From assembly GCA_965214835.1 (NCBI GenBank), contig CBDCCK010000002.1:1632001-1696000 (forward strand): a stretch of 64,000 nucleotides of DNA. Direction: 5' to 3'. Of the stretch, positions 31,850 through 55,363 are shown in pieces. This DNA comes from Nitrosopumilaceae archaeon. Lineage in GTDB: Archaea > Thermoproteota > Nitrososphaeria > Nitrososphaerales > Nitrosopumilaceae. The translations under genes were made by a program, and so were the position numbers. Position 1 is the first letter of the stretch, and each line of letters starts with the position of its first letter. The notes beneath the pieces were generated by a model that was not told where the DNA came from, ran no database searches, and saw only the letters and a program-made list of their open reading frames with translations.

Positions 31850-32046
31850 GGGACGTGGTCCTGCGGTACCTGCCGCCGTACACGCCGGATCTGAACAACA
31901 CGGAGGGGCAGTGGCGCGGGCTAAAGAAGGCGACTTCAAACTGCCTTTACAGGACCGTCGGCGGGATGCAGAGATCCCTGCACAATATGACGCGCAGAAG
32001 CGAGTTAAAGGTGGTAAAGATGAGCAAATGGCTGACGTAGATACTA
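31850..32046 (+). pseudogene. IS630 3' remnant with right end
   Basis: YLPPYTPDLNNTEGQW; ends GACGTAGATACTA followed by CG. Confidence 0.8.
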
Positions 32047-32224
32047 CGCATGGTCTTCTACACGACAGTGTCGTCCTCAGCCTTCCAAGTGTACGCGATT
32101 CACGATGCTGACATACGGATCTGCAGGCAGCATAATTTGAATCATTTTGAATATGGATCTGTCTTGTGGGGCACTTTTGGGAAGGCTTGATCTAGTTTTT
32201 ATAACATTTTTTGAACATCTACAT

Positions 32225-49370: not shown

Positions 49371-49722
49371 GTATGAGACGCTGTATCAAATCTTATCCGT
49401 AGCGGACGCCATATCATCCGCGTTGGGCCCAAGAGCCGAAGTAAACTTGCCACGTATGAGGGCGCGTAAGAGACTGGCTCAGAGTAGGCGGACAACGAAA
49501 TGCAACATAATCGAGGGCGAATGGGAGTTTTCCGTTCAGTCGAGCGCACACGCTTTGATCAAAAAGGAGGTGATATAATGATCAACATAGGAATAGACGT
49601 TCATAAAAAGACGTGCGTGGCAACCATCAAGGGCAGGGCTGCCAAGATCCTGGAACAGACGGAGTTTTCCAACACGGCCGATGGAATAAGGGGATTTATT
49701 GGGCAGATCAGAGAGAAATACG
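49371..49722 (+). mobile_element. IS110 copy 2: full left non-coding end plus truncated recombinase (ATG 49578)
   Basis: Aligns with 18569-18918; cut by an IS630 end at 49723. Confidence 0.85.
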
Positions 49723-50012
49723 TAGTATCTAGCTAAGATAATCGCTCATCTCGCAGATCTTGATCTCGCCCCTGCGCAACATGACGCGTATGGACTTCTG
49801 CATCTCGTCGACGGTCTTGTAAAGGCGGTTTGCAGTCGCCTTTTTGAACCCGCGCCACTGCCCCTCTATCTTGTTCAGCTCCGGCGTGTACGGCGGCAGG
49901 AACTTTAGCACCACGTCGCCATTCCATTCTGTTAGCTGCTCCCTGACCAGTGTGGCCCTGTGATACGATGCGTTGTCGACAAACAGCAGCACCTTGTCGT
50001 ACTTGCGGCGTA
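49723..50012 (-). pseudogene. IS630 3' remnant with right end
   Basis: FVDNASYH, LPPYTPELNKIE; end TAGTATCTAG preceded by CG. Confidence 0.82.
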
Positions 50013-50022
50013 GCAGCATCTA

Positions 50023-53120: not shown

Positions 53121-53213
53121 GTATGTGGTCACGTCCCCTTGCTAGCTAGGCACGAGGATCACAATCATTCATGTTAATTCATGCCTAACTGATGATGGTA
53201 GGTGACCTCGTAC
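53121..53213 (+). mobile_element. MITE B, 93 bp, TSD GAAAAAAA
   Basis: GAAAAAAA at 53113 and 53214. Confidence 0.9.
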
Positions 53214-53458
53214 GAAAAAAAATAAGGATGCCTCAGTCGAGACCCTGTGCTGCCTTGACTGCTTCCCTCAGGCTCCCCGCCGCTATCGACATTTCCTCGT
53301 GGTAGTGCTTGGCAGAGTCTCCTTCGATCAGATACATTCCAGATGTGGGGCCGACCAAGGCATAATTATCACCAGTTATGCCGTCCGGATTTTTCTCCAG
53401 GAGCATTATGACATCATCATTGATCTCGACGTCATGTCTCTCAAATACAGCTATCACG

Positions 53459-54590
53459 TAGTATTCACGGCTACCAATTGATCACAAAAAGGACAATTTT
53501 TTTCAACCAAAGGATCCAAGATCTGCCAGTCCCATACATACACATGAAAGGAAAAAAGGAACTGCCGGCGGGAACGCAGTTCCTGTACGGGATAGCAAGC
53601 AAGGACAGGCTTTTTAGGATGCACAAGTCCGAGAAGAACGCCAAGGCGGCCATCAGGCTCCTGGTCTATTATATGAGAAAGTGCGGCATGAGCATATACC
53701 AGATTGCCGAGAAGCTGGACAGGCCGTATGGAACCATACGGTACTGGCTGGTGCGCGCACACGAGCACGGCCTGGAGGGCAGGTTTGACATAAGGCACGG
53801 CGCCCCGTGCAGGCTCGACAGGAAGCAGCTTGGGCAGCTGCGCGCAGACCTGATTGAAGGCCCGCAAAACTGCGGCTTTGAGGCGGCAACATGGACCGGA
53901 CCGCTGGTCATCGCCCACGTCAAAAGGAGGTTCGGCATCACGCATGCGTCCATGGGCATATACGACCTGCTGCACAGAATCGGCTTTTCGTGAAGGCCGC
54001 GCCCAAAACACCCAAAATCATCCACGGAATCCGAGAAAGAGGAGTTCAAAAAAAAAGCTGGGCGGTGCACGGGGTACTATTCGAAGAAGGAATACACGGT
54101 AATGATAGGGGACGAGTCCTCGTTCATCCTGGGATGGAACGTCAAGAACAGCTGGTACCCTGTAGGAGAGCCTGTCTTCACGCCGTCCAACCTGTCAAAG
54201 GAGAGGTTCTATGCCATAGGGGCCCTCTCAAGGAACGGCCTTGACTGCCGCTTTTACAAAAAGGCCGACACGTACACGTTCTTCAAGTTTCTCAAGGCGC
54301 TGCGCCGCAAGTACGGCAAGGTGCTGCTGTTCGTGGACAATGCATCGTACCACAAGTCTACAGAACTCAAGAGAAAGATGGCCGGGTGGAACGGGGATGT
54401 GGTGATACGGTACCTGCCGCCGTACACGCCGGAGCTGAATAACTCGGAGGAGCAGTGGCGCGGGCTGAAAAAGGCGACTGCAAACTGCCTTTACAAGACA
54501 GTCGACGCGATGCAGAAATCCCTGCGCGTCATGCTGCGCAGGGGCGAGATAAAGGTGGTGGAGATGAACAAATGGCTGACGTGAATACTA
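53459..54590 (+). mobile_element. Full-length IS630-family element (1132 bp), transposase 53544-54584 broken
   Basis: TIR TAGTATTCACG/CGTGAATACTA flanked by CG; GDES, VDNASYH, PELNNSE; TGA at 53991; A-run near 54050. Confidence 0.88.
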
Positions 54591-54721
54591 CGGCGGTGCC
54601 GTGCCCGGTCTGCAAAAGCACATCTGGGAGCTACCGAGTCCCCGATCTAGCCTGATCAAAAAGGAATACATGGTGGGCGGTATTCGGTTGGCTTTTTATC
54701 TGGAAATTTCTTAACAGTACC

Positions 54722-55363
54722 ATGGCAATGCCGATGGACTATGATGGAGCGCGCACCGATGACTCGGAGCGTACCGACAACCCGACTGACTACAAGCGGA
54801 CCTGCATTGGCTTTATAGAGGACATCTCCCGTGACTACAAGGCATGGGTTGACTATTACCGCCTGCCAGAAGACGAGGACAAAAGGCGCAGATCCGAGAT
54901 TGACGCCACCATAGCCAGATCCAACGAATGGATTGCCAAAGTCGCAACCTCGATAAAATCAATAGACGTTGTCATGAACGACGGAATCCAGAAGATGGCC
55001 GAGGCCACGGCTGGGAGGCCCTTTCAGATCGGCGTGTTTGTAAACGGCAAGTCAAGCTACACCCTTGCAAGGCCCGGGATCATCGATGTCAATGTAAAGG
55101 CGGCAGGCCGGGGGGACAGAAAGACAAGGCTGGGATTCCACTTCAAGGACGACCGCTTTAGGATAGAGTCTACCTGCAGGGCATTCCTAGACGAGGACGG
55201 CCTGCCCGCCGGGGAGCACGACCTGATGGACATCCACCTCAGGCTGCACGCCGAGAAGGCAGCGGCACGTGACGTCATATCATTTACCGTGACTGTCATT
55301 GAGACCGAGAACGGGACCGAATACGACAAGCGCGGCGTCTCTACCATTGTTCACATAACGTGA
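54722..55363 (+). CDS. Hypothetical protein
   Basis: 213-aa ORF; TTTTTAT box upstream. Confidence 0.75.
   Translation: MAMPMDYDGARTDDSERTDNPTDYKRTCIGFIEDISRDYKAWVDYYRLPEDEDKRRRSEIDATIARSNEWIAKVATSIKSIDVVMNDGIQKMAEATAGRPFQIGVFVNGKSSYTLARPGIIDVNVKAAGRGDRKTRLGFHFKDDRFRIESTCRAFLDEDGLPAGEHDLMDIHLRLHAEKAAARDVISFTVTVIETENGTEYDKRGVSTIVHIT

Follow-up and report, generated by a model that had tools for sequence, protein, structure and literature searches.

Insertion at TA counts as a hallmark of the entire IS630/Tc1/mariner superfamily, and annotation pipelines rely on it when they set the boundaries of elements. In the window, by which we mean the whole stretch of 64,000 nucleotides that was analysed, an IS630-type element is bordered on each side not by TA but by CG, and the sequence across it reads ...GCTATCA CG TAGTATTCACGG...CGTGAATACTA CG GCGGTGC.... 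The earlier note on this DNA had described the full element in this way, and we confirmed the reading, with the two CGs at 53457-53458 and 54591-54592. The question raised by this locus is whether CG, and not TA, is duplicated when such an element inserts. From the comparison of sequences it is very probable that the window element is a degenerate member of an IS630/Tc1-type clade of ammonia-oxidising archaea which integrates at CG with a 2-bp stagger, duplicating CG and not TA. Elements of this clade end TAGT...ACTA, and filled sites of the form X-CG-element-CG-Y are matched by empty sites of the form X-CG-Y.

The element in the window

The element is an inactive copy of an IS630-family transposon (family 1, subfamily i) of 1132 bp on the plus strand (53459..54590). 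Its 26-bp terminal inverted repeats were located on the plus strand at 53459..53484 (left, TAGTATTCACGGCTACCAATTGATCA) and 54565..54590 (right, ending ...GACGTGAATACTA), using an inverted-repeat finder and an alignment of copies, in which the left ends of seven copies from the window's own genome (G000) align. With the CGs included, the finder returned arms of 28 nt (53457-53484 and 54565-54592) which are 82% complementary. A transposase reading frame of 346 codons (53544..54584, plus strand) starts at ATG 53544, encodes an N-terminal helix-turn-helix and a C-terminal DDE_3 domain of the DD36E type, and terminates at a stop codon (54582-54584) lying inside the right inverted repeat. The frame is broken by one in-frame TGA (53991..53993; ..HRIGFS*RPRPK..), at which intact relatives have Cys-Arg. 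Contigs from four public runs, representing other copies or strains, carry three extra letters behind 53991, and because of this the TGA of the window can be described as a 3-base difference from its relatives. One run also holds a contig identical to the window version at this position. A second copy in the same genome (C2:2298329-2299462) is 95% identical to the window element.

Both junctions of the window copy are spanned by short-read contigs from the runs of two studies (53314-53497 and 54563-54800, with 0-1 differences), and the junctions are real and no artefact of assembly. Contig loose ends arising from other insertion sites leave the window sequence just outside the CG, at 53456-53457 and 54592-54593. 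No joint across the element, as expected of an empty allele, was seen in the read contigs, in which rare variants can hide.

For profile searches the window protein was read through the in-frame stop with X. It was matched by the NCBIfam model of the IS630 family transposase (NF033545, transpos_IS630) with 160.1 bits against a cut-off of 100 over residues 39-331, and by the Pfam models DDE_3 (2e-23, 83 bits against a cut-off of 28.6), HTH_33 (2e-10, 40.8 bits against 25) and HTH_23 (27.3 bits against 24.6); a match to HTH_32 fell below its cut-off. Motif matching counted 36 residues from the second D (LFVDNASYH) to the E (PELNNSE). The same spacing was observed in the other 14 proteins of the archaeal clade in which both motifs were found, out of 29 proteins examined, and the first D of the triad (MIGDESSF) was placed by eye only.

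Protein searches identified two homologues, an intact one of 344 aa (P0002; 80% identity), which has 19 cluster members and lies on a 2.83-Mb contig, and one of 53% identity (P0004) on a contig of 2.51 Mb. The AlphaFold model of the intact homologue (mean pLDDT 78, helices in residues 20-145) found its best structural matches in full-length complexes of the Mos1 mariner transposase (5hoo, 4u7b and 3hos; E ~3e-10), and also matched the catalytic domains of Mos1, Metnase and Sleeping Beauty (2f7t, 3k9k and 5cr4) with TM values of 0.5-0.6 by target length. The sequence profile matches the catalytic domain of Sleeping Beauty with an E value of 0.003, and identity to the solved structures is only 15-18%. 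We conclude that the window element is an IS630/Tc1-type transposon with a DDE transposase of Mos1-like fold. The family model, the paired helix-turn-helix and the D,D(34-37)E domain by which IS630 members are recognised were all found, as were a size of ~1.0-1.4 kb, short inverted repeats and a single gene (here 1132 bp, 26-bp ends and one frame), and a 2-bp duplication was seen in the filled/empty pairs of its relatives. The TA target with TA duplication was looked for as well and was not observed, CG being duplicated in 17 of 17 and 13 of 14 complete copies of the two families described below.

Flanks of the window copy and copies in its own genome

The earlier note had also argued that removal of the element together with one CG joins the flanks in frame with a minus-strand ORF. 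The frame is indeed open across the excised element, but it does not attest a true junction. The ORF (53233..53457, minus strand) is the C-terminal fragment, of 74 codons, of a host gene which is cut off at the element, and the N-terminal part is absent from the locus. In its orthologue from the close relative G002, in both of its G000 paralogues and in its G031 homologue, this gene continues as GCTATCA(CA/TG)TCGTCAGTTTCCCC... or ...GCTATCA(CA or TG)TCGTCAGTTTCCCCGCC..., so that the CG at the left end (53457..53458), which is host sequence, corresponds to CA or TG in the flank homologues. After the element the window instead reads CGGCGGTGCC.... Its right flank (CGGCGGTGCCGTGCCC..., 54591..54655) is a short piece of a multi-copy repeat with 33 matches in G000 (47-65 nt, 78-87% identity), and not the continuation of the left-flank gene. 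The CG at the right end (54591..54592) is likewise host sequence, as seen in the six right-flank paralogues displayed of the 33 matches (...GGAAAGTAG CG GAGGTGCCG...). The expected continuation of the left-flank gene was absent within 15 kb downstream of the element. Since the homologues continue otherwise and the right flank is a separate repeat, the open frame is a coincidence.

Accordingly, we found no empty site for the window copy, whose flanks are contiguous in no homologue, and in four other full-length copies of G000 (b, c, d and g) the flanks were likewise not contiguous. Because its flanks come from different sequences, the duplication is not demonstrable on the window copy itself. 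The window copy sits at a rearrangement breakpoint, which probably resulted from recombination between two copies, and the flanks of copies b, c, d and g fit old copies which have recombined with each other. With its in-frame TGA and its rearranged flanks, the window copy is unable to move by itself.

G000 is a genome of 3.22 Mb in 2 contigs with 52.6% G+C, and it encodes an archaeal AmoA. A DNA search of this genome with the element gave 51 matches, in which three end subfamilies could be distinguished (...GACGTGAATACTA, ...GACGTAGATACTA and ...CAGCTAGATACTA), and the reading frames of all nine full-length copies of family 1 were broken. CG was observed outside 10 of the 17 left ends and 15 of the 23 right ends that were located. 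CG accounts for 6.2% of the dinucleotides of G000, so that these counts far exceed what chance would give. The remaining flanks (7 of 17 left, 8 of 23 right) read CA, TG, TA, CT, AA, AC, AT or AG. TA is the rarest dinucleotide in this genome, at 3.9% against 6.2% for CG.

Two remnants of related elements in the window, which the earlier note had picked out for CG at 32041-32048 and 49721-49730, do carry it at those positions. The first (31850..32048, plus strand, recovered by DNA search) has the right end ...GACGTAGATACTA with ATACTA at 32041-32046, followed by CG at 32047-32048. The second (49721..50014) lies on the minus strand with the right end ...AGCTAGATACTA, having CG at 49721-49722 and TAGTATCT at 49723-49730; in the nearest paralogue of its flank, which shares 96% identity and has no insertion, a single CG occupies this position.

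Young copies and empty sites

Twenty related loci were found in the sister genome OZ243974.1, of which 17 complete copies were compared and three partial ones left out. The 17 copies measure 1133-1136 bp, are more than 99% identical to each other, and all are flanked by CG on both sides with unrelated sequence beyond (CG|TAGTATCCTCGG...GACGTAGATACTA|CG; the ends read CG|TAGTATCC...GATACTA|CG). There has thus been a recent burst in one ammonia-oxidiser genome, represented by 17 near-identical copies, and the relative G000 contains broken and rearranged ones.

Empty sites were sought by comparing 400 bp of each flank of the OZ243974.1 insertions with G000. An uninterrupted site was obtained for 10 of the 17 insertions, and in all 10 the best matches of the left and right flanks overlapped by exactly 2 bp. 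The shared dinucleotide was CG in seven (L063, L064, L066, L071, L072, L075 and L078). For L063, flank identity to the empty site was 99.5/99.8%, and alignment by MAFFT showed G000 to consist of the left flank and the right flank sharing only CG, with 100% identity. The three empty sites lacking CG had TA (L067, 86% identity), TG (L074, ~80%) and AG (L068, 99%).

A second family, in OZ245003.1, has a transposase that is 53% identical, ends TAGTGAATTGGATTAAC...CTAGTCACTA, and a length of 1130-1133 bp. Here 16 related loci were found and 14 complete copies counted; CG lies outside 13 of the 14 left ends and all 14 right ends. This family yielded four clean filled/empty pairs, with a single CG in the empty site. 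Filled and uninterrupted sites were compared for L086 and L091, for L092 and L094, and for L095 and L097 (100/99.3% identity), and L087 is inserted in another copy of the same element, for which 15 uninterrupted copies were available for comparison. The first of the two readings offered by the earlier note, a CG-targeting clade with TAGTA termini, is therefore upheld by young copies from two related genomes, set against uninterrupted sites.

One-sided comparisons gave a similar picture. In G000, uninterrupted paralogues with CG at the junction were found for seven left and eight right ends, and in G002 for two of the three left ends having paralogues (11 and 4 paralogues). Following the junction CG, the paralogues from these two genomes read CCTGG, TCGAA, TCTCA, TTTTA, ATGCA, TCATA, TGTTT, TTTTG or CCCGG. 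Four ends in G000 were non-CG in the filled and the uninterrupted copies alike, with CA (13 paralogues, 98% identical), GA (33 paralogues), AT and AG. CG specificity may not be absolute, or the non-CG flanks may have been replaced later.

Of the 31 copies that are complete in the two CG families, 16 have A immediately before CG, 11 have G, 4 have C and none has T; immediately after it, 16 have T, 8 have C, 6 have G and 1 has A. Symmetrised, this amounts to a weak target context of about KKR-CG-YMM.

Sister families and phylogeny

Related families with TAGT/TAGC termini, as in the CG families, were found to carry other duplications. The P0016 family of OZ245003.1 (40% identity, 14 copies) is flanked by TG/TG in seven copies, CG/CG in four, CA/CA in one and TA/TA in one, and the remaining copy has a mismatched pair. 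An IS630-type family of ~1424 bp in G000, with ends TAGTCAATTCATAAAAAAACG, shows AG/AG, CG/CG twice, CA/CA and one TG/TA; the duplications listed for the copies at C2:1624158-1625189, 2343546-2344577, 2691052-2692083 and 1308388-1309419 (L216, L220, L223 and L225) are AG, CG, CG and CA. The frames are intact in three of these four copies, and one has a single in-frame TAG. A copy of this ~1424-bp element was the site of one CG-family insertion in OZ243974.1 (L072).

In G004, family a is flanked by TA/TA twice and AA/AA once, and a related single copy by TA/TA. Family b of the same genome (~1549 bp, ends TAGTGATTTTAAAAAAGAATGG...) shows 4-bp direct repeats of the form YRYR in all five copies examined of the six returned, namely CGTG, TGCG, TGCA, CGCA and CACA at L224, L226, L230, L232 and L234. 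A 4-bp stagger in this family would be unusual for the superfamily.

We constructed a maximum-likelihood tree of 29 transposases, with a midpoint root for drawing only. All of these families fell in one archaeal group (support 96/98), separate from the TA-type metagenomic relatives. The two CG families shared one clade (98/92); the variable 2-bp families formed another clade (98/99), and the TA/AA and 4-bp families two further ones. It would be reasonable to suppose, with somewhat better than even confidence, that target choice has been re-programmed several times within this well-supported archaeal DD36E clade of IS630-type elements, giving a CG-only clade, one using TG, CA, CG, AG or TA, one using TA or AA, and one with a 4-bp YRYR duplication and hence a changed stagger.

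The distant metagenomic relatives, mostly 22-38% identical and classical TA-type elements, served as a control. Of 60 loci tried, 20 yielded an inverted repeat, and in 15 of these 20 TA was outermost, which agrees with the TA rule. The closest of these loci (L125 and L129) had no clear ends by which the CG clade could be extended. The motif PELNNSE/PELNTTE (in place of PELNPIE) by the catalytic E was considered as a cause of CG specificity but probably does not account for it, as other members of the CG clade keep NPV/NPI.

Alternative explanations

PiggyBac is a DDE cut-and-paste transposon of a different superfamily, which duplicates a fixed palindromic 4-bp target, TTAA, and carries it as an overhang. 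CG might similarly be carried along as a 5' overhang from the donor and imposed on any target, an idea to which we give a small chance. What speaks for it is L068, which is flanked by CG on both sides although its target is a repeat with AG or AA at this point in the first paralogues inspected (11 of 11 in OZ243974.1, 7 of 7 in G000). The repeat has about 26 near-complete matches in OZ243974.1, and a further paralogue among them reads CG, which makes a CG-bearing target copy for L068 plausible. Moreover, CG was already present in seven of the ten family 1 empty sites and in all four of family 2, compared with 6.2% by chance, and the 5' cut of ISY100 lies inside the element and not outside it (PMC2170065).

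Still less probable is that CG belongs to the element, as the outermost part of an inverted repeat CGTAGTA..., and that insertion occurs without any duplication. In favour of this, CG is its own reverse complement and is conserved in three diverged subfamilies, but the uninterrupted sites already hold CG. In addition, relatives with TAGT ends carry TG/TG, CA/CA and AG/AG repeats, which are impossible in an inverted repeat. Since these direct repeats of the sister families are not palindromic, the flanking bases must be a duplication and no part of the inverted repeat.

The earlier note had offered a strict palindromic target, CGTAG-TA-CTACG, as the other way of reading the ends. Here a classical TA duplication would surround an element GTA...TAC with a preference for CG-TA-CG, and the filled site taken alone fits, CG-TA-GTA...TAC-TA-CG being palindromic; for one insertion in G002, the orthologous site of G000 also happens to read ...GGCCTA TG GCC.... 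This reading predicts empty sites of the form X-CGTACG-Y, but neither CGTACG nor CGTAGTACTACG occurred in any of the empty sites, whose usual form is X-CG-Y with one CG. The overlap of flanks was 2 bp and not 6 in all ten family 1 pairs, the four empty sites of family 2 had a single CG, and TACG never followed the junction CG in the one-sided comparisons in G000 and G002. That the uninterrupted sites could be products of excision is argued against by their presence in many paralogues. A search of G000 for the predicted excision footprint, CGTACG opposite a paralogous CG, gave two weak, misaligned cases among 361 sites with a spanning paralogue and 0-1 for five control hexamers, which amounts to no signal. 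We regard the palindromic target as ruled out and a TA duplication of this kind as scarcely credible. Neither a palindromic empty site nor plain TA with variable flanks, the two patterns which the earlier note had set against duplication of CG, was encountered.

Chance or faulty assembly, under which the CG flanks of the window would mean nothing, can be given practically no weight, for although a single copy with non-contiguous flanks is weak evidence alone, CG borders 25 of the 40 ends located in G000, all 34 of family 1 in OZ243974.1 and 27 of 28 of family 2, against 6.2% expected, and contigs from the runs of two studies bridge both window junctions.

Proposed mechanism and relation to known elements

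Insertion at CG with duplication of the dinucleotide is thus the explanation that we prefer, and its simplest account is the standard IS630/Tc1 pathway acting on a different target dinucleotide. The outcome is a 2-bp duplication of CG; for the cleavage positions and the protein determinants we reason from relatives. The ISY100 transposase is described in PMC2170065 as cleaving the 3' ends precisely at the terminus and the 5' ends two bases within the element, and as joining the 3' ends to sites at TA that are 2 bp apart. By analogy with the biochemistry of ISY100 and Tc1/mariner, the helix-turn-helix domains would bind the 26-bp inverted ends, and cleavage would take place precisely at the terminus for each 3' end and two bases within the element for each 5' end. 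The exposed 3'-OH groups would then attack the phosphates that flank CG, which lie 2 bp apart, and the gaps would be filled by host repair.

For its integration Sleeping Beauty requires a target that is strongly bent, and DNA in which pyrimidine-purine steps alternate bends readily (PMC7827188). The set of pyrimidine-purine steps consists of just CG, TG/CA and TA, and YRYR comprises two such steps, from which we infer a possible rationale for the observed spectrum of targets.

Like IS630 of Shigella sonnei and ISY100 of Synechocystis, the archaeal elements are ~1.1 kb long, have short inverted ends, encode a single transposase of ~345 aa with a helix-turn-helix at its N-terminus and DDE_3 at its C-terminus, and duplicate 2 bp; they differ in that CG is duplicated and not TA. 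With the Tc1/mariner elements (Mos1, Sleeping Beauty and Tc1) they share a predicted fold, for which the Mos1 complexes were the best structural matches, and their xAGT termini are similar to the ends of Tc1-like elements, which read CAGT. In contrast to that group, CG is the rule in the archaeal clade, and the low identity to the solved structures noted above sets it apart. PiggyBac and the archaeal clade are both DDE cut-and-paste systems with a palindromic duplicated target, but of 4 bp (TTAA) in the former and 2 bp (CG) in the latter. For the superfamily PMC7827188 gives TA as the target, and it records rare non-TA events for Sleeping Beauty.

We found no report of CG duplication in the IS630/Tc1/mariner superfamily in the literature searched, and earlier curation in ISfinder or TnPedia is possible. 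The sections consulted of PMC6563490 mention IS630 in a single thaumarchaeal species and give no target data, those of PMC11544213 only list a Tc1-like protein of Nitrososphaera, and those of PMC3379541 contain one passing mention. What emerges, as far as sequences can tell, is a CG-specific clade within the DD36E archaeal IS630 radiation that has departed from the TA rule, and the window copy is a dead and rearranged representative of it.

The existence of a CG clade beside relatives with other pyrimidine-purine or 4-bp targets shows that evolution can alter both the bases which are read and the distance between the points of strand transfer, and closely related enzymes with different specificities offer material for swap and structure experiments. 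Boundary calling based on TA will mis-annotate such archaeal elements. If the target differences are intrinsic to the transposases, these enzymes would form a natural series in which to study target recognition and spacing by the Tc1/mariner type, and CG-targeting transposon tools for GC-rich genomes could be derived from them.

Other mobile elements in the host genome

The flanks of nearly all IS630-type copies in G000 have several to dozens of paralogues, and in every full-length old copy tested the two flanks came from different repeats. The genome has the appearance of a patchwork of mobile elements that are nested in, or have recombined with, one another. A repeat family starting TGTATACCTGACGTCCCCGTGCGCCGTGCC, mostly preceded by CTA, occurs at C2:1852007, 1845669, 1919265 and 1964816 and in paralogues, and in four places an IS630-type remnant directly adjoins it with its right end, the first TG of the repeat being replaced by CG or CT. 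At C2:1908998 and 1931640, two paralogous sequences each contain an element left end, at CGs which are 25 bp apart (gttgttgCG|TAGTA... and gttgttgCGTTTTAACCACGGGTGTGAGGTCACG|TAGTA...); this pair reflects either two independent insertions or a 25-bp deletion.

Upstream of the IS630-type element, a miniature element of ~95 bp was noticed in the window at 53121-53215, with ends GTATGTGGTCAC...GTGACCTCGTAC and an A run at its flank. The matching site in G031 is empty. Well over 100 relatives of this miniature element are present in G000, and one copy sits within an IS630-type copy at C2:1876256-1877493.
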